The notes below the pieces were generated by a model. That model was not told the DNA's origin. It did no database searches and saw only the letters and a list, made by a program, of their open reading frames with translations. DNA of 39,294 bases from the UHGV virus genome UHGV-0210057; one strand, given 5' to 3'. Positions 2,623-13,268 of the stretch are shown here, piece by piece. The number at the start of each line of letters is the position of its first letter. The stretch's first letter is position 1. The DNA comes from a virus. Made by a program: the position numbers and the translations under genes.

Positions 2623-2689
2623 TGAAACAGATGAGTTGAGTTCAAACTGTAGTACAATTCTCTCCAGTTTGAACAGGAAAGAATATGCT

Positions 2690-3022
2690 ATGAATCCTTA
2701 TATTTATCTTGGTGGTGCAATACTTGCAGAGGTCATTGGTACAACCTTAATGAAGTTTTCAGAAGGTTTTACACGGTTATGGCCATCTGTTGGTACAATT
2801 ATTTGTTATTGTGCATCATTCTGGTTATTAGCTCAGACGCTGGCTTATATTCCTACAGGGATTGCTTATGCTATCTGGTCAGGAGTCGGTATTGTCCTGA
2901 TTAGCTTACTATCATGGGGATTTTTCGGCCAACGGCTGGACCTGCCAGCTATTATAGGCATGATGTTGATTTGTGCCGGTGTGTTGGTTATTAATTTATT
3001 TTCACGAAGCACACCACATTAA
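2690..3022 (+). CDS. emrE: SMR-family multidrug efflux transporter EmrE
   Basis: 110 aa from MNPYIYLGGAILAEVIGTTLMKFSEGF, four predicted TM helices; same position as emrE in the DLP12 prophage; AT-rich relative to neighbours. Confidence 0.85.
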   Translation: MNPYIYLGGAILAEVIGTTLMKFSEGFTRLWPSVGTIICYCASFWLLAQTLAYIPTGIAYAIWSGVGIVLISLLSWGFFGQRLDLPAIIGMMLICAGVLVINLFSRSTPH

Positions 3023-3055: not shown

Positions 3056-3082
3056 AGCCCGCATAAGTGCGGGCTGCTTTTT
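3056..3082. terminator. Rho-independent terminator after emrE (bidirectional, shared with the convergent esterase gene)
   Basis: AGCCCGCA-TAAG-TGCGGGCT hairpin followed by GCTTTTT; the T-run overlaps the esterase stop codon. Confidence 0.6.
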
Positions 3083-4124
3083 ACAGGTCAGCGTTTGTTT
3101 TTTGTTGTTGGGTAGCGGTTTTTATGGGGGTTCCCAGTTTTTTAGTAAACCACTCAACAACTCTGTTTATAATAATTGGCTGATACCATGTATTATCGCC
3201 ATGCTCAGCCCCTTCTACCAGAACGTACTCAGCGTTATCGCCGTTCTTCTTCAACATCCTGAATAGTTTGGCGCTTTGCTCAGGTGAAACCAGAGTGTCT
3301 TTGCTACCATGCATAATAAGAAATGGGGGTTTTACTCCTTTCATATGTCCGATTGGACTGGCGTTTAGCGCTTTTTCTTTTGACGCTGTTATGGGGGCTC
3401 CCGCAAAACTTCTGAATGCAGGGCCATTGATCATTAAGGCTTCGGTTACGGCAGGAGATCGATGAACCTCCTGCACAGATTCAGGGAACCCCTCGCCAAT
3501 ATTCAACAAGTCAGAAATCCCATAAAGTGTGGCAACTGCCTGAACATCTGCTGATTGCTGAAGAAAGTCACCTTTATCAAAGGTTTTGTCACCATTTGTA
3601 GTTCCCATCATCTGGGCAAGCCATCCACCGGCAGAGTCACCCAGAACTCCGATTCTTTGAGGATCAATCCCATAATCGCTGGCATGTTCTCTCAAGTAAC
3701 GTATTGCAGCTTTCCCATCCTCAACTGGTGCTGGAAATGTATCAGGAATTGTTCTGTATTCTACAGCGGCCACAACAAAACCAGCTTCAGCCAGAGCCAT
3801 TCTCATTTCAATAAATTTGTCATGTTCAGAAGACATGAATCCGCCGCCGGGATAATAAATAATGGCTGGTTTTAAATCATTTGTTCGTGGGACAAGAACT
3901 GACATGTGAAGCTGTCTGACAGAACGAGTTCCTTTTATCTGGGAATAAACAACATCACCAATGAGATCGACCTGGTTTCTGGTCGGTGAAACACTAATGA
4001 TATCTGCACCCGGGGTGTAACCAGGAAGATTAGTCTGGACAGGTGTTGCACAACTCCCGACCGACATGGCCATTGACATACCATACAATAGTGTTGCAGA
4101 TGATAATATCTTGTTAATTTTCAT
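3081..4124 (-). CDS. Secreted or lipoprotein alpha/beta-hydrolase (esterase/lipase-like)
   Basis: 347 aa; N-terminal signal peptide with possible lipobox (MSMAMSVGSC); GDSAGG nucleophile motif and HGSKD; opposite strand to flanking phage genes with its own terminator (moron organisation). Confidence 0.75.
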   Translation of the reverse strand: MKINKILSSATLLYGMSMAMSVGSCATPVQTNLPGYTPGADIISVSPTRNQVDLIGDVVYSQIKGTRSVRQLHMSVLVPRTNDLKPAIIYYPGGGFMSSEHDKFIEMRMALAEAGFVVAAVEYRTIPDTFPAPVEDGKAAIRYLREHASDYGIDPQRIGVLGDSAGGWLAQMMGTTNGDKTFDKGDFLQQSADVQAVATLYGISDLLNIGEGFPESVQEVHRSPAVTEALMINGPAFRSFAGAPITASKEKALNASPIGHMKGVKPPFLIMHGSKDTLVSPEQSAKLFRMLKKNGDNAEYVLVEGAEHGDNTWYQPIIINRVVEWFTKKLGTPIKTATQQQKTNADL

Positions 4125-6530: not shown

Positions 6531-7628
6531 TTAGAACTGGTAAACCAGTCCTACGGCAACGATGTCGTCAGTGCTTACACCAAGTGCTTTAGTGAAGTCG
6601 TTTTTGTCAAGCAGGTTGATCTTGTAATCAACGAAAGTAGACATGTTTTTGTTGAAGTAATAAGTTGCACCTACATCAACATATTTGACTAAGTCCTGAT
6701 CGCCCCATACTCCAAGATCCTTACCTTTAGATTGCAGGTAAGCAACGGACGGACGCAGACCGAAATCGAACTGATATTGTGCAACAGCTTCGAAGTTTTG
6801 AGCTTTATTAGCAACGAAGTGATCAGCAAATACAGTCATATTCTGGGTTTCAGAATAGGTAGTGGCCAGGTAAATGTTGTTAGCGTCATATTTCAGACCT
6901 GCGGCCCAAATTTCTGCATTTTTACCGGAAGCAAATACTTCAGGAAGAACTTTGCCTGCATTGACTTGAGTGTCGGTACGATCAGATTTCGCATAAGTCG
7001 CACCAATGCCGAATCCTTCGTATTCATAGGTAGCAGAGAAACCGAATCCATCACCGTTACCTTCGGTGTAGTTATCGAAATCGCTACGATCGTTTTTACC
7101 TTGGTACTGAGCAGCAAAGTTCAGACCATCAACCAGACCAAAGAAGTCGTTGTTACGGTAAGTTGCAACACCAGTTGCACGTTGAGTCATGAACACGTCG
7201 GTTTGAGTCCAAGTATCACCACCGAATTCTGGCAGGACGTCAGTCCACGCACCGATGTCGTATGCTACACCGTAGTTACGACCGTAATCGATGGAACCGT
7301 AGTCACCGAATTTCAGGCCTGCAAATGCAAGACGGGTTTTGTCTTTGGCGGAACCTTGAGATTCAGCGCGGTTGCCTTTGAATTCATATTCCCACTGACC
7401 GAAACCAGTCAGTTGATCGTTGATTTGGGTTTCACCTTTGAAGCCCAGACGAACATAAGTAGTATCACCATCATCTGCATCGTTAGAGGAAAAGTAGTGC
7501 TTGGCATTAACTTTCCCGTACAGATCCAGCTTGTTACTGTCTTTATTATAAATTTCAGCTGCCTGAGCAGACATCGCCATCAGTACTGATGCAGCTACAG
7601 CAGAAATTGCCACTGTTAATTTTTTCAT
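6531..7628 (-). CDS. nmpC: OmpC-family general porin (NmpC/Lc-like), apparently intact
   Basis: 365 aa from [23 protein letters not shown] signal peptide; AEIYNKD..LDLYGK start, porin motifs and C-terminal ...VGLVYQF; same position and orientation as nmpC in DLP12. Confidence 0.9.
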
Positions 7629-7706
7629 CGTGAGCCCTTTTTTTGAACTATTATTAAAAAATGATGTCACTGCGCGATAAATATTCATCTAATCAATATG
7701 ATTATT

Positions 7707-8753
7707 TCAAGATGTTGTATGGGTCCACCACATATTGCAATTTTTATTCTCTTTTAAAATATATTCCACGGGCGTCATTAGTGCGAGCGCCTTGTGGGGT
7801 CTTTTGCTGTTATACAGCACCAGATATTCCGCCAGCTTCTGGTTAAATAGCGCCAGATCTTCAAAGAGTAAAATCTCATTAAATTCAATAAACTGCTCTC
7901 TTAACGTCCGGTTAAAACGTTCACAGATAGCGTTCATTTTTGGCGTGTAGGGATAGGTCCAGAGGTGTTTGATAGCGGCTTCCTGCAGCGTTTTGTCGAA
8001 GTTTCCCAGGAACTCTTTTCCGTTATCTGTGATTATCTGGCTGATACCGACCGGGAACAACCGGGCTGCGCGGCTGAAGAAGTGATTGACGATATCACTG
8101 TTGAGTGACGGCACAGCCAGCGCCAGCGCGTAATTGCTGCATTCGTCGATCATGGTGATGACATAGCGACGCAGTTCGCCCATTCTGAGCTCAATGGCGT
8201 CCATCCCAATGAGCTCACCTGTCTTTACCGGGCGGTAGTGCTTTGGCCTGCGGGGTTTGGCAGACCGCTTTTTGACAAGCAGTGCCTTCCCCCGCGATCC
8301 CAGACGCACAGGTATCATCCGCATTTTATCATGTGCGGCAGCGATCATTCTGCCGATGGTGGAAACACTCGGACAGGCCAGATAGCGCTGTTCGCACCAG
8401 GGCTTCAGGCGAACAAAAATCTGCTCTTTACCGAGGTTCGGCAGCTCTGTCCTGAGGCGTCGAATCTCTTTCAGCACATCGGGATGCCAGTGTTTTTTTC
8501 GTCGCACCAGAGGTGCCTTACTGTGCGGGATTAGCCCCTCAGGTCCTTCCTTGTTCAGTAACTGACGCCACCAGTAAAGCGTGCGGCAGGACACGCCAAA
8601 GGCTTCAGAAGCTGCAGAAATACCGTGTTTATCCCAGAAGTGCAGAGCCTTCATTCTCATTGTTGCTATATCAGCCATCACTGAAAGCCTCAACGCATAA
8701 TCGGCCGTTTGGTAGTACTTAGGATAGCCAACCATCAGATGCTGCATTTGCAT
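7707..8753 (-). CDS. IS transposase (single ORF with N-terminal HTH and rve/DDE integrase core; IS481-family-like)
   Basis: 348 aa; rve-type catalytic region (ITDNGKEF...YTPKMNAICERFNRTLREQ...YNSKRPHKAL); AAGGGGAG RBS before the start. Confidence 0.8.
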   Translation of the reverse strand: MQMQHLMVGYPKYYQTADYALRLSVMADIATMRMKALHFWDKHGISAASEAFGVSCRTLYWWRQLLNKEGPEGLIPHSKAPLVRRKKHWHPDVLKEIRRLRTELPNLGKEQIFVRLKPWCEQRYLACPSVSTIGRMIAAAHDKMRMIPVRLGSRGKALLVKKRSAKPRRPKHYRPVKTGELIGMDAIELRMGELRRYVITMIDECSNYALALAVPSLNSDIVNHFFSRAARLFPVGISQIITDNGKEFLGNFDKTLQEAAIKHLWTYPYTPKMNAICERFNRTLREQFIEFNEILLFEDLALFNQKLAEYLVLYNSKRPHKALALMTPVEYILKENKNCNMWWTHTTS

Positions 8754-8815
8754 AGTGCAATCTCCCCTTACTTATCCGGAGGCAATTGCAATATCTCTGT
8801 GAACTTACACAGATG
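7711..8815 (-). mobile_element. Insertion sequence (IS481-family-like), boundaries approximate
   Basis: Imperfect terminal inverted repeats with identical 11-bp core ATATTGCAATT at 7732-7742 and its reverse complement at 8784-8794; element about 1.1 kb with one transposase ORF; exact ends and target-site duplication not resolved. Confidence 0.55.
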
Positions 8816-9316
8816 TAAGTTTTAGTTTCTCATTTAATTTGTGAAGTAGATCTCTATTTTTATCTGAACTTTTTCTATCGAAACCTATTTATGGCTCTTA
8901 TTTGAACAAAAATAAACCTATTAGCTAATTTATATTAATGGCTGTTATTTATGGTGGTTCTATAATTCGGAAGTTTAATTTAAATCAACTAAAAATAACG
9001 TCGGAAATTATTTATTGGTTATTTGTTGAGGTTTTCTTATGTATTTGTGGTGGTGTTTTGAACACTCGGTAGCATTCTCATAAATATCATTCAGTGGTTT
9101 ACGTACGTAAAAAATTGGTTATGCTGTTAAGAGTGGTTACTTCGTCACACAGCTTAAACCCGCCGTCGAGCTGGTTTTTCCATTTTTTGAGTCTCGATAT
9201 TAGCTGATAACTCAATACCTGAGTTATTCATTGACTCCGAGTCTGTTACGTTTCTGCTTTTTTGCGATACGTTGTATTCCCTCAATTTACACCCGCTTTG
9301 TCTGCGAGGTGGGGTT

Positions 9317-9532: not shown

Positions 9533-10029
9533 TGCCTCCATCATTACGAAAAGCCGTTGCTGCTGCTATTGGTGGCGGAGCAATTGCTATAGCATCAGTG
9601 TTAATTACTGGCCCAAGTGGTAACGATGGTCTGGAAGGTGTCAGCTACATACCATACAAAGATATTGTTGGTGTATGGACTGTATGTCACGGGCATACAG
9701 GAAAAGACATCATGCTCGGTAAAACGTATACCAAAGCAGAATGCAAAGCACTCTTGAATAAAGACCTTGCCACTGTCGCCAGACAAATTAACCCGTACAT
9801 CAAAGTCGATATACCGGAAACAACGCGCGGCGCTCTTTACTCATTCGTTTACAACGTGGGTGCTGGCAATTTCAGAACATCGACGCTTCTTCGCAAAATA
9901 AACCAGGGTGATATCAAAGGCGCATGTGATCAGCTACGTCGCTGGACATATGCTGGCGGTAAGCAATGGAAAGGTCTCATGACTCGTCGTGAGATTGAGC
10001 GTGAAATCTGTTTGTGGGGTCAGCAATGA
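9532..10029 (+). CDS. rrrD: SAR endolysin (T4-lysozyme-like, phage 21 R-like)
   Basis: 165 aa; N-terminal Gly/Ala-rich signal-anchor-release segment ([18 protein letters not shown]) followed by a lysozyme catalytic region (EG..Y.D..GV.T.C.GHT). Confidence 0.85.
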
Positions 10030-10463
10030 ACAGAGTAACCACGATTATCTCCGCTCTGGTTATCTGCATCATCGTCTGCCTGTCATGGGCTGTTAATCAT
10101 TACCGTGATAACGCCATCGCCTACAAAGAGCAGCGTGATAAGGCCGCATCCATTATCGCTGACATGCAGAAACGGCAACATGATGTAGCAGAACTCGACG
10201 CCAGATACACAAAGGAGCTTGCTGATGCTAACGCGACTATCGAAAGTCTCCGTGCTGATGTTTCTGCTGGTCGTAAACGCCTGCAAGTCGCCGCCACCTG
10301 TGCAAAGTCAACGACCGGAGCCAGCAGCATGGGCGATGGAGAAAGCCCAGGACTTACAGCAGATGCTGAACTCAATTATTACCGTCTCCGAAGTGGAATC
10401 GACAAGATAACCGCGCAGGTTAACTACCTGCAGGAATACATCAGGACGCAATGCCTGAAATAA
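10026..10463 (+). CDS. rzpD: Rz i-spanin
   Basis: 145 aa from [18 protein letters not shown] (N-terminal TM) with coiled-coil periplasmic region; ATGA overlap with the endolysin stop. Confidence 0.8.
10219..10410 (+). CDS. rzoD: Rz1 o-spanin lipoprotein, embedded in the +1 frame of Rz
   Basis: Small ORF wholly inside Rz with lipobox (LLVVNAC) and proline-rich segment ([13 protein letters not shown]); exact start codon uncertain. Confidence 0.65.
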
Positions 10464-10494
10464 TTTTTTTGCAAATCACAAAGTCCATTTAATG

Positions 10495-10517
10495 AGCCTC
10501 GCGATGCGGGGCTTTTT
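10495..10517 (+). terminator. Intrinsic terminator after the lysis cassette (first of a tandem pair)
   Basis: AGCCTCGC-GAT-GCGGGGCT hairpin (one G-U pair) followed by TTTTT. Confidence 0.55.
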
Positions 10518-10524
10518 GCAATAA

Positions 10525-10549
10525 ATGCGTACCGCAACGCATGTTTTTT
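10525..10549 (+). terminator. Intrinsic terminator (second of the tandem pair)
   Basis: ATGCGT-ACCGCA-ACGCAT hairpin followed by GTTTTTT. Confidence 0.55.
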
Positions 10550-10664
10550 ACACCGAACCTGCCCCTTTGGAATGGGCCTTTGAGGATACCAGTTAGTGCT
10601 GGCGAGCCTCGGTGGGCTGGTTTCCTGTGCGGCAAAGGTTCATTTCAAAGAGTAGGTACACGCT

Positions 10665-11435
10665 ATGAAATCATTAACCCTCTTCAATCAACCAATTCGT
10701 ATCGGTGAAGATGGCATGATCTGCCTCACTGATATGTGGAAAGCCAGTGGTAAAAGTGAATCTGAATCGCCTTACCACTACCTGCGAAACAAGCAGACCA
10801 AAGAGTTCTTAGCCGAGCTGGAGAAAAACCACGAATCTGTGGTTTTTACTGAGCGCGGTGTACACGGTGGAACATATGGCGGGAAGTTTGTTGCTTACGA
10901 TTATGCGGCTTGGTTAAACCCCGGGTTCAAGTACGCGGCCTATAAAGTCCTCGATGACTACTTCACCGGAGAACTTCAGCATCGCAACAGCTTAAGTGCG
11001 CAGCTCAACATGAAATGTCATGAGTTTGACCAGAAGAAAGACATGGCGAGCTTCTGCGGACAAGGGCTGGCAGCATGGCGCTATACGAAGCCAGTGTTGG
11101 TCGCTGAGATTAACTCCCTGGCTAACCAGCTGCAGATTACGATCCCCCGGGCTTCCGGGATGAGTGATCGTGTCATTGAATGCGCCTCCAGAGCGGGGCG
11201 CGACTTCTCAGAGTTCATGAAAGGCGAGAAGGGCATGATGGAAGCATTGGCCTCGGTGGATGAGTTTGGCGAGCAGCTGCGCCTCAACGGCTGTGTCAAT
11301 CATCACTTTGTTAGCTACATGATGCGGAACTCGATCATGCAGGCATTCATGGACATGGCAAAAGCCGAGAGGAAAGAAGAGCGCCGGCGTAAGCGAGCGG
11401 AAGCAAAAGCAAAAGCAAAAGCAAAAGTGAAGTAG
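10665..11435 (+). CDS. KilA-N domain protein (antirepressor-like) with C-terminal (AK)n tail
   Basis: 256 aa; N-terminal KilA-N-type motif (ICLTDMWKASGKS..PYHYLRNKQTKEFL); basic C-terminus ending AEAKAKAKAKVK. Confidence 0.7.
   Translation: MKSLTLFNQPIRIGEDGMICLTDMWKASGKSESESPYHYLRNKQTKEFLAELEKNHESVVFTERGVHGGTYGGKFVAYDYAAWLNPGFKYAAYKVLDDYFTGELQHRNSLSAQLNMKCHEFDQKKDMASFCGQGLAAWRYTKPVLVAEINSLANQLQITIPRASGMSDRVIECASRAGRDFSEFMKGEKGMMEALASVDEFGEQLRLNGCVNHHFVSYMMRNSIMQAFMDMAKAERKEERRRKRAEAKAKAKAKVK
11403..11426 (+). repeat. Tandem hexanucleotide repeat (GCAAAA)x4 at the 3' end of the KilA-N gene
   Basis: Four perfect GCAAAA units encoding AKAKAKAK; a 6-nt unit changes length in frame only. Confidence 0.85.
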
Positions 11436-11730
11436 CCATTACAAAGCCCATTTACGGGTGGGCTTGATAATGAAACCGGAATTTATTCTGGGCCACCAGT
11501 TAACGGCAGTACCACGAAACAACCCAAGCCAGTAAGTGGGGAAATAACACTGGCAGCCACTGAAAGATGAAGCTCCTGCCTTAAGGCAAAAAAGATTCTT
11601 TGTGGTGGCGGACTGATGGAAAGACATCGGTTATTGCAGAGGCCATTCAATGAGTGGTCTCGACAATGGCTTATACCCTACACGGGATAACTTAACTGAT
11701 ATCCCTTTTAACGGATAAACGGAGCCAACA

Positions 11731-12217: not shown

Positions 12218-12457
12218 TTAACCGCGAGCTTCACGACCGTTTTCGTCTTCAGGCACACGGAAACGCCAGTACTTGTCTGGCTTAACCCAAACGACATCAT
12301 TGCCACTATCAACTCTAAATGCATTTATAACTTTGGTTGAAAGTACTTGGTTGCCATCTGCATTTTCTTTCAGGTGCTGCTCATTACCTGTCTTTATCAG
12401 GTAATCGACAACATCTTGTTGATAAAGGCATCTGTCAGTTACTAATGCGGACATCAT
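12218..12457 (-). CDS. Hypothetical protein
   Basis: 79-aa ORF on the strand opposite the virion genes; no family recognised. Confidence 0.45.
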   Translation of the reverse strand: MMSALVTDRCLYQQDVVDYLIKTGNEQHLKENADGNQVLSTKVINAFRVDSGNDVVWVKPDKYWRFRVPEDENGREARG

Positions 12458-12501: not shown

Positions 12502-12714
12502 TTATGGCTTTGGGTTTGTGTCCGTTAAAGACTCTTCAGCAAAGTGTCCTTTCTCAAGTTTTTTCCCTGCAAACCATTGGCATGTGTATGTTCCAGTAAA
12601 AGAACCTCCGTATTCGTGGATTTCGTATACAGACATCTCAGGACCGCCTGATTTCAAATATACGGAATCGCCAATTTTAAATAACGCTTTTCTTACAGTT
12701 GAAGATTTGCTCAT
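12502..12714 (-). CDS. DUF2158 (YodC-like) small protein
   Basis: 70 aa with the motif GDSVYLKSGGPEMSV...C.WF.G characteristic of YodC/DUF2158 as recalled. Confidence 0.55.
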   Translation of the reverse strand: MSKSSTVRKALFKIGDSVYLKSGGPEMSVYEIHEYGGSFTGTYTCQWFAGKKLEKGHFAEESLTDTNPKP

Positions 12715-12740: not shown

Positions 12741-13268
12741 ATGGCACTCACCGACAAGCAAGAGATGTTCTGTCGCGAGTACCTCATCGATTTAAATGCC
12801 ACGCAAGCGGCTATTCGGGCGGGGTACAGCGCAAAGACAGCTAACCGTACCGCATCCGAAAACCTGTCAAAACCTGACATCAAGTTAAGAATCTCCGAAC
12901 TGAAAGCGCAACGCAATGATCTTGTTGGTATTAATGCAGAATATGTACTTAACCGCCTTATTGAAATCGACCAGATGGATGTGCTCGACATTCTCCTGCA
13001 AAACGGTGAGTTAAAGCCCATTAAAGACTGGCCTAAGGTATGGCGCACAACGCTATCAGGAATGGATGTCGTGGAGATGGTATCCGCAGATAGTGCCGCA
13101 CTTCTGAAGAAAATCAAATGGCCTGATAAGGTCAAAAACCTCGAACTTCTTGGTAAGCATGTTTCCGTTCAGGCATTTAAAGAACAAGCTTCTCACGAGC
13201 TAACCGGTAAAGACGGCGGCGCAATCCAGATTGAAACATCACCGATGAGCACTCTATTCGGAAAATGA
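12741..13268 (+). CDS. Terminase small subunit
   Basis: 175 aa; N-terminus MALTDKQEMFCREYLIDLNATQAAIRAGYS is the conserved terminase small-subunit HTH motif; ATGA overlap with TerL. Confidence 0.85.
   Translation: MALTDKQEMFCREYLIDLNATQAAIRAGYSAKTANRTASENLSKPDIKLRISELKAQRNDLVGINAEYVLNRLIEIDQMDVLDILLQNGELKPIKDWPKVWRTTLSGMDVVEMVSADSAALLKKIKWPDKVKNLELLGKHVSVQAFKEQASHELTGKDGGAIQIETSPMSTLFGK

Follow-up and report, generated by a model that had tools for sequence, protein, structure and literature searches.

The DNA analysed here, referred to throughout as the window, is a 39,294-nucleotide stretch of the viral genome UHGV-0210057, and as a whole it is a P22/HK620-like lambdoid temperate phage, whose gene content includes O, P, NinB, RusA and Q, a porin gene and an IS transposase. 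Downstream of its holin, lysozyme and Rz genes lies an open reading frame encoding 256 amino acids, which is followed by a DUF2560 gene, a 59-aa ORF, two small genes on the minus strand and the small and large terminase subunits. The location in the gap between Rz and the small terminase subunit, given in a first-pass annotation made from the sequence alone, is thus correct. The features of the locus, from 5' to 3', are the following.

10014-10463: Rz, the gene directly 5' of the fused ORF
10464-10664, plus strand: leader from the Rz stop to the ATG, with two terminator-like hairpins and then a long conserved hairpin abutting the ribosome-binding site
about 10489-10520 and about 10525-10548, plus strand: the two terminator-like hairpins, from a terminator scan
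10665-11435, plus strand: fused hkbK-hkbL ORF, 256 aa, with ATG at 10665 and TAG at 11433-11435
10689-10967, plus strand: KilA-N domain (aa 9-101), a predicted DNA-binding module
10989-11147, plus strand: ORF11CD3 domain (aa 109-161; PF10549, E 1.5e-15), modelled as a single long helix
11144-11148, plus strand: C5 homopolymer, one C more than the C4 (or CCCA or ACCC) of all relatives, from alignment with HK620 and PhiR49_1
11160-11163, plus strand: ATGA, in which the hkbL start (11160-11162) overlaps the ancestral hkbK stop TGA (11161-11163)
11160-11435, plus strand: HkbL-homologous part (aa 166-256), three helices with a basic C-terminal helix
11403-11426, plus strand: (GCAAAA)x4 microsatellite, perfect and in frame, encoding AKAKAKAK and followed by GTG AAG TAG (VK and stop)
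11444-11465, plus strand: 7-bp hairpin AAGCCCA...TGGGCTT just 3' of the stop, without a U-tract, read from the sequence
12741-13268: small terminase subunit, 3' of the fused ORF

The start codon is preceded by the ribosome-binding site TAGGT, and the protein opens with the KilA-N domain that the first-pass annotation had recognised as a motif, since the Pfam family (PF04383) matches at 56.6 bits against a gathering cutoff of 23.8. This domain has the APSES-like alpha/beta DNA-binding fold of a family that includes P1 KilA and yeast Mbp1, with an identity to the latter (1bm8) of only 13%. C-terminal to it, the ORF11CD3 profile is covered over its full length (1-54) at 57.5 bits against a cutoff of 25; the earlier annotation had not listed this domain. 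The PHROG families divide the protein in two, phrog_129/10441 taking aa 1-179 and phrog_875 taking aa 166-250, with phrog_875 matched end to end (1-85 of 85 positions). Searches against NCBIfam and against PDB sequences returned no match, and neither Pfam nor NCBIfam detected a nuclease domain in either part. The C-terminus is highly basic, as had been claimed, given a net charge of about +9 over the last 24 residues.

A structure model of the fused protein reached a pTM of 0.40, with the ORF11CD3 helix (110-156) at pLDDT 52-75 and the linker (165-181) below 50, and it places the HkbL part relative to the HkbK part without confidence. The modelled arrangement of domains is unreliable because the underlying alignment had depth for the HkbK part and none for the HkbL part, MAFFT having misplaced blocks of the joint two-family alignment. 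Twice, MAFFT set the ORF11CD3 region of homologues on the N-terminal half of HkbL.

The hkbK-hkbL cassette of lambdoid and P22-like phages was first annotated in HK620. There, hkbK (NP_112071, a KilA-N domain protein of 165 aa) and hkbL (NP_112072, 85 aa) lie in the same slot after Rz and encode the same domains, and both the homology of the two parts and the post-Rz position identify the locus in the window as a cassette of this type. The pair is also found in PhiR49_1, ECP1 and the Stx phages 1717 and 2851, with DNA 95-99% identical to that of the window. The HK620-type pair consists of two cistrons with an ATGA overlap, one perfect GCAAAA unit and the tail AKAK, whereas the window has one ORF by the addition of a single C, four GCAAAA units and a VK end. 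For HK620 and PhiR49_1, which are 97-99% identical to the window and in which hkbK (165 aa) and hkbL (85 aa) are annotated as overlapping genes, the alignment contains two differences, namely CCCCC for CCCC and 18 additional bases in the repeat.

Lying 16 nt 5' of the hkbK stop, the extra C brings translation of hkbK into the reading frame of hkbL, leaving the ancestral TGA out of frame. The ending IPGLPG* is converted into IPRASG, which runs directly into Met1 of HkbL, and HkbK loses four residues only (GLPG to RASG). The single 256-aa frame therefore exists only because of the extra C. In every relative examined, hkbK (165 aa, KilA-N plus ORF11CD3) and hkbL (about 85 aa) are two genes: the two are separate cistrons in 208 of the 208 other HkbL-encoding loci, in 165 of which the upstream ORF is 165 aa long and ends 4 nt beyond the hkbL start. 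An open upstream frame occurs in five of the 213 loci fetched, these five being the window plus four assemblies with an identical sequence. It can be said with high confidence that, anatomically, the ORF is a fusion of hkbK and hkbL whose HkbL tail is polymorphic. The earlier view of a KilA-N protein bearing an Ala-Lys tail as one product accordingly describes the frame in the window, while elsewhere the tail belongs to a separate HkbL of about 85 aa.

How rare the five-base form is becomes evident from large sequence collections. No fusion emerged when 5.8 billion protein clusters were searched by word index, coverage among the 30 matches listed being at most 64% of the 256 aa, and the typical relative there is a protein of 165 aa with the C-terminus IPGLPG. 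Among the 21 HkbL matches of a HMMER search of 1.84 billion representatives, none is naturally fused to KilA-N. The junction is present in 477 of 5,426 complete E. coli genomes, in none of which the exact C5 80-mer was matched (the best hit, at 98.8%, differs by one gap). The C4 pattern has at least 120 matches in IMG/VR and occurs in 28 JGI metagenome contigs, while neither collection contains the exact C5 pattern; all 120 of the IMG/VR contigs listed carry a four-base form (CCCC, CCCA or ACCC) at the junction. An absence from other lineages is also what would be expected if the fusion were mildly deleterious.

A one-base difference in a homopolymer is a classic site of error, and the absence of C5 from other database sequences could likewise be taken to mean that the true sequence is C4, with no single ORF, and that the window holds a sequencing or assembly artefact. 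However, the exact 256-aa protein is present in four Logan assemblies from two different run series (SRR8653234, SRR8653235, SRR12122253 and SRR12122256), which match the window at 100% DNA identity along as much as 12.7 kb, IS element included, and a one-off error is unlikely given the same protein and DNA in four assemblies. A run of five bases is, moreover, short for a systematic error on short-read platforms. An artefact is thus highly improbable, and the C5 fusion allele is real and restricted to one phage lineage. If all four read sets come from one strain lineage, as may be the case, they are evidence that the allele is real and not that it is successful. One of the Logan contigs measures 39,323 nt, 29 nt more than the window, a length suggestive of a circular assembly of the complete genome and so, perhaps, of an active phage.

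The fused frame could also have been produced in all relatives, to some extent, by programmed -1 ribosomal frameshifting at the C-run, the window then being a hard-wired version of it, and the frame of the window is exactly what would result if tRNA-Pro slipped back by one on C-CCC. Yet the site reads C-CCC-GGG and offers no X-XXY-YYZ heptamer, synonymous changes (CCCA in 10, ACCC in 1) break the run in 11 of the 120 IMG/VR contigs listed, modules with P63C or ANT partners have a 2-nt gap and other frame relations, and the fused product has neither been annotated nor observed elsewhere, which together leave this mechanism extremely improbable.

The repeat is exactly where the first-pass annotation had placed it and is translated in frame as described. 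Tandem Repeats Finder reports it at 11401-11427 with a period of 6, 4.5 copies and 100% matches, as the sole perfect hexanucleotide array in the window, and no such array arose in 100 shuffles of the window that preserved its dinucleotides. Across de-duplicated loci with HkbL identity above 90%, the number of perfect GCAAAA copies is 0 in 3 loci, 1 in 90, 2 in 17, 3 in 14, 4 in 8, 5 in 3, 6 in 1 and 9 in 1; an independent metagenome set ranges from one to four copies in similar proportions. The proposed in-frame variation of copy number, and with it of tail length, is therefore borne out, relatives having between 1 and 9 copies. Haplotypes otherwise identical over about 780 nt differ in copy number (3 vs 4 or 4 vs 5, for example), a pattern that speaks for repeated slippage. 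GTGAAG closes nearly all of the alleles that have at least two copies, and GCGAAG closes the one-copy allele. In every lineage except that of the window, the (AK)n tail is carried by HkbL and not by the KilA-N protein.

As a tandem repeat within a gene whose copy number is polymorphic among close relatives, the array is a simple-sequence locus and resembles the contingency loci of bacteria, which likewise consist of a slippage-prone coding repeat with copy-number polymorphism between close relatives. It differs from them in that its unit is a multiple of three, which changes length only, and in that it bears no sign of selection on length. The idea that selection on the number of (AK) units tunes the tail adaptively draws on the range of one to nine copies, on the unequal numbers in otherwise identical haplotypes and on the variable tails of Enterobacter homologues (...AETKAKAK and ...AEVKAKAKAKAK). 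Against it, the 6-nt unit keeps all alleles in frame, so that tail length varies and no on/off switching takes place; one copy dominates and the spectrum falls monotonically (90, 17, 14, 8, 3, 1), which looks like neutral stepwise mutation by slippage; and, in more distant homologues, the tail varies freely and is not encoded by a repeat. An adaptive role of this kind seems hardly likely.

HkbL itself belongs to a narrow enterobacterial family, with stand-alone homologues of about 83-105 aa (in one search 138 clusters, nearly all of 83-92 aa) that share the nearly invariant motifs ECASRAGRDFSEF and GCVNHHF. Its dN/dS against eight diverged homologues is 0.05-0.31, a sign of purifying selection and hence of a real, constrained protein. 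AlphaFold2 predicts three helices for it (pLDDT 92, pTM 0.70), the third extending into the basic tail, and Foldseek searches of the PDB and BFVD yielded no fold neighbour at E <= 0.001, the hits being generic helical bundles only. A reading of HkbL as a diverged second copy of ORF11CD3 was rejected, as the profile-profile comparison gave a probability of 0.15 and one of 24 members touched PF10549, at E 0.12.

The company that hkbL keeps is more telling with regard to its role. The gene always lies directly 3' of a Bro-network gene, which it overlaps by ATGA or by 8 nt or from which it is separated by 2 nt, although the architecture of the partner comes in three types. KilA-N with ORF11CD3 is found in E. 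coli phages and in an Enterobacter siphovirus (L217), between the tape-measure and Dit genes. KilA-N with P63C is found in Klebsiella, Raoultella, Scandinavium and Trabulsiella and at a further locus (L216), in a Mu-F/capsid region, and pRha with ANT in a Rouxiella P22-like prophage, in an arc/ant-like operon ahead of the tailspike. The module of a Bro-type gene and hkbL thus occupies four different genome positions, and at one locus just the last eight codons of the partner are retained before hkbL. HK97, with HK97p60 (a KilA-N protein of 242 aa) and HK97p61, and mEp234, mEp235 and HK446, with proteins annotated 'KilA-N-P63C', use the same slot between Rz and the terminase or HNH gene and have the HkbL homologue next to it; there, in distinction to the window, the large protein ends in P63C and not in ORF11CD3, a 2-nt gap replaces the overlap, and the two genes are unfused. 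HK97 probably belongs with the KilA-N plus P63C type, judging from the length of 242 aa, the position and the mEp234-type annotation. A scan of one genome per species gave seven HkbL loci, too few for statistics. Such swapping of partners is the best evidence that HkbL works with Bro-type proteins and suggests a conserved partner; since it directly follows three different architectures, HkbL is probably a dedicated partner of Bro-network proteins. The fused ORF of the window agrees with such cooperation without proving it.

Upstream of the cassette, the leader RNA is predicted to fold at -74.4 kcal/mol, with z = -3.5. Relatives provided 46 distinct leader sequences, and nine representatives of these share a consensus hairpin of 20 pairs with 7 compensatory pairs, in which 89% of the cells are paired as against 36-50% when the partners are slid. 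The covariation evidence is modest, because the nine sequences stem from a handful of independent lineages. Rfam has no family in the window at gathering thresholds, and the sole match around the gene is at chance level (E 0.99). A scan for consensus sigma-70-like sites found none on the plus strand between 9200 and 12800, that is, from holin to terminase. Presumably lacking a promoter of its own, the cassette would depend on the late promoter and on antitermination by Q, in line with the HK620 annotation, the transcript reading through the terminator-like hairpins and the structured leader. The small hairpin 3' of the stop, for which the terminator scan made no call, is kept in HK620 and PhiR49_1, a C-to-T change in the latter turning one stem pair into a G-U wobble.

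Overall, hkbK-hkbL is an ordinary and widespread accessory cassette. In near-identical P22-like prophages the same slot is filled by a GIY-YIG nuclease or a Rha-family regulator, and in phage Dewey by an HNH gene, so that the cassette is exchangeable and presumably non-essential. No functional study of the pair was found in the literature. Host-killing activity has been reported for P1 KilA. Bro-network proteins swap domains and are often regulatory (PMC10111431), and the antirepressors among them, such as P22 Ant in immI and GfoA/GfhA of Gifsy phages (PMC3121763), belong to the same domain-shuffling network as HkbK (PMC10111431). The suggestion of an antirepressor or regulator, made in the first-pass annotation, is circumstantially favoured by the HkbL homologue that lies within an arc/ant-like operon of arc, Bro-N-P22_AR_C and pRha-ANT genes. 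On the other side, the window protein differs from these antirepressors in having no Pfam match to ANT, AntA or P22_AR at E <= 1, and the scan for consensus sigma-70-like sites turned up neither an Arc/Mnt- or LexA-type control region nor a repressor-controlled promoter; the sole antirepressor-related match is to phrog_20738 ('anti-repressor', E 0.0027), on the ORF11CD3 region. The tentative assignment offered here is a regulator or antirepressor-like protein that binds DNA, is expressed late, works with a small partner of its own and has its targets outside the morphogenesis genes of the phage itself.

A different function could be imagined from the variability of the slot and from BstA, a prophage-encoded abortive-infection protein that is located by the repressor and has a KilA-N-like N-terminal domain (PMC8585504); the gene might then serve in anti-phage defence or superinfection exclusion, or in anti-defence. 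The part of the first-pass annotation that called the gap a defence hotspot is not borne out for this gene, however, as PADLOC identified neither BstA nor any other system in HkbK, in HkbL or among the four small genes beside them, and its single weak local match, to the candidate PDC-S22 (30.6 bits), is confined to aa 60-90 in the KilA-N core. The C-terminal half is unlike that of BstA, there is no BstA family match, and the genome position differs too: BstA is encoded next to the repressor (PMC8585504), but here the gene is part of the late operon, flanked by Rz and the small terminase subunit, and the scan showed no promoter-like site that could express it in a lysogen. A defence function is quite unlikely on these grounds. 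The exchange of the cassette for GIY-YIG or HNH nuclease genes in near-identical phages, the scatter of the Bro-type gene and hkbL module over four late-operon positions in unrelated phage types, and the links of Bro-network proteins to nuclease domains in the literature (PMC10111431) would also fit a selfish mobile cassette without benefit to the phage, the KilA-N protein being a DNA-targeting remnant or relative of homing-endonuclease-type elements. This is very unlikely, considering that no nuclease domain was detected in the two proteins and that HkbL is under purifying selection across genera. Further, an HNH gene beside the terminase of HK97-like phages has a role in packaging, so that the presence of HNH need not mean homing.

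A more serious question is whether the fusion is simply a lesion, in which termination-reinitiation would no longer yield free HkbL, the C-terminus of HkbK would be tied up, an accessory gene would be decaying and selection would maintain no role for the 256-aa product. No other lineage examined has the C5 allele, hkbK is sporadically frameshifted or split elsewhere (P0031, L131, L132), the lineage of the window also carries an IS insertion not seen in eight relatives, and the cassette is dispensable enough to be replaced by other genes in near-identical phages. Nevertheless, the damage is close to the minimum that a frameshift can cause, with four residues changed and both domains and all of HkbL kept in frame; the flanking lysis and terminase genes are intact, their lengths equal to those in relatives, which speaks against general gene decay; and the 39,323-nt contig, if it does reflect a circular genome, may point to an active phage. 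Loss of function is, on this evidence, plausible but rather unlikely.

The explanation that best accommodates these observations, and that is probably right as a whole, is an accessory hkbK-hkbL cassette fused by C5, with a polymorphic HkbL tail and a presumed role as a late regulator or antirepressor-like pair. The extra C in the C4 run takes the ribosome into the hkbL frame and appends the whole of HkbL, giving one 256-aa chain, and each GCAAAA step adds or removes one Ala-Lys of tail length and charge without ever switching the gene off, replication slippage being the likely source of the variation. The KilA-N domain would bind DNA, with HkbL as the dedicated small partner that it appears to be for Bro-network proteins at large. 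Non-essential and acting late, the pair may serve as a regulator or as an antirepressor-like factor on the DNA of the host, of a co-resident prophage or of a satellite, and not in virion production, and the fusion would most likely be a tolerated or near-neutral single-chain version of it.

It is evident that what is notable at this locus is a lineage-specific one-base fusion, a polymorphic in-frame microsatellite and HkbL as a conserved companion of the Bro network. For annotation, the lesson is that a 256-aa 'KilA-N protein' is hkbK and hkbL joined by a frameshift, and that the basic repeat tail is not attributable to KilA-N proteins generally. Three leads emerge, namely HkbL, a small, conserved and previously unnamed family that travels with three kinds of Bro-type protein and is probably their partner; a natural in-frame series of tail lengths, from 1 to 9 AK units, which is usable for tests of function; and a structured leader with compensatory changes upstream of the cassette. 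These are modest leads, and current understanding stays as it is unless the partner hypothesis gains experimental confirmation. A bolder and unlikely reading would make HkbL an obligate small subunit or a built-in antagonist of three Bro-network architectures, the fusion a natural 'Rosetta-stone' by which the two proteins are revealed as a single working unit, the (AK)n helix a tunable contact to nucleic acid and the leader hairpin a regulatory RNA of its own. Few uncharacterised accessory genes are as common in temperate phages, Stx phages and satellites as those of the Bro network, KilA-N included, and the obligate-subunit or antagonist reading, if true, would provide the first functional handle on this very common class.

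By sequence comparison, the slot between Rz and DUF2560, in which the hkbK-hkbL cassette lies, is a site of cassette exchange. In phages that match the window at 96-99% identity in the flanks, namely at loci from NZ_CP151004 (L218) and NZ_LR134152 (L219) and in phage Dewey (PQ850600), it is instead filled by the gene for a GIY-YIG nuclease, for a regulator of the Rha family or for an HNH nuclease. Further aberrant alleles of the cassette occur in public data. One homologous protein (P0031) carries a different frameshift that likewise runs into HkbL, and another (P0036) is an HkbL-Rz chimera with its junction at an RRKR/GRKR motif common to both partners, while hkbK is split at two loci (L131 and L132), one in a Leclercia genome and one in a contig mislabelled as Nanosynbacter.

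The stretches on either side of the cassette contain the following features:
10464-10664, 5' of the gene: leader with two terminator-like hairpins and one long conserved hairpin
12218-12457 and 12502-12714, minus strand: a pair of small genes, DUF6953 and DUF2158/YodC

The leader is unusually stable in its fold (z = -3.5), and its long hairpin is kept across nine representative leader sequences of relatives, with seven compensatory pairs. No Rfam family matched the leader, which may serve the cassette as a cis-regulatory RNA. The two small genes, retained in relatives and without a match in PADLOC, face against the late operon immediately 5' of the small terminase subunit.

Within the fused ORF, MAFFT repeatedly paired residues 120-161, the ORF11CD3 region of HkbK, with residues 166-207, the N-terminal half of HkbL, and the two have the pattern A-S..G...K....QL.I in common. 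Profile-profile comparison of these two regions gave no support for the likeness, which is probably a chance similarity between helices.

Further features lie upstream:
1047-1186: tandem repeats of 19-43 nt inside the O replication gene
2636-3022, plus strand: SMR-family small multidrug efflux protein
3081-4124, minus strand: BD-FAE/alpha-beta-hydrolase esterase
6531-7688, minus strand: OmpD/NmpC-like porin
about 7689-9271: IS element between the porin gene and the holin
7707-8753, minus strand: rve-type IS transposase, 348 aa

The efflux, esterase and porin genes are cargo of the early-right and Q-S regions. The IS element lies on the route that the late transcript takes, and its insertion is specific to the lineage of the window, since in eight relatives carrying an identical porin the porin-holin interval is a 587-nt gap without it.

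Finally, the tandem repeats in O are probably origin iterons. The Logan read-set contig SRR8653234_1379 (L124) measures 39,323 nt against 39,294 nt for the window, and because an excess of 29 nt would be expected from circular assembly of the entire phage genome, it suggests replicating or packaged phage DNA in that sample.
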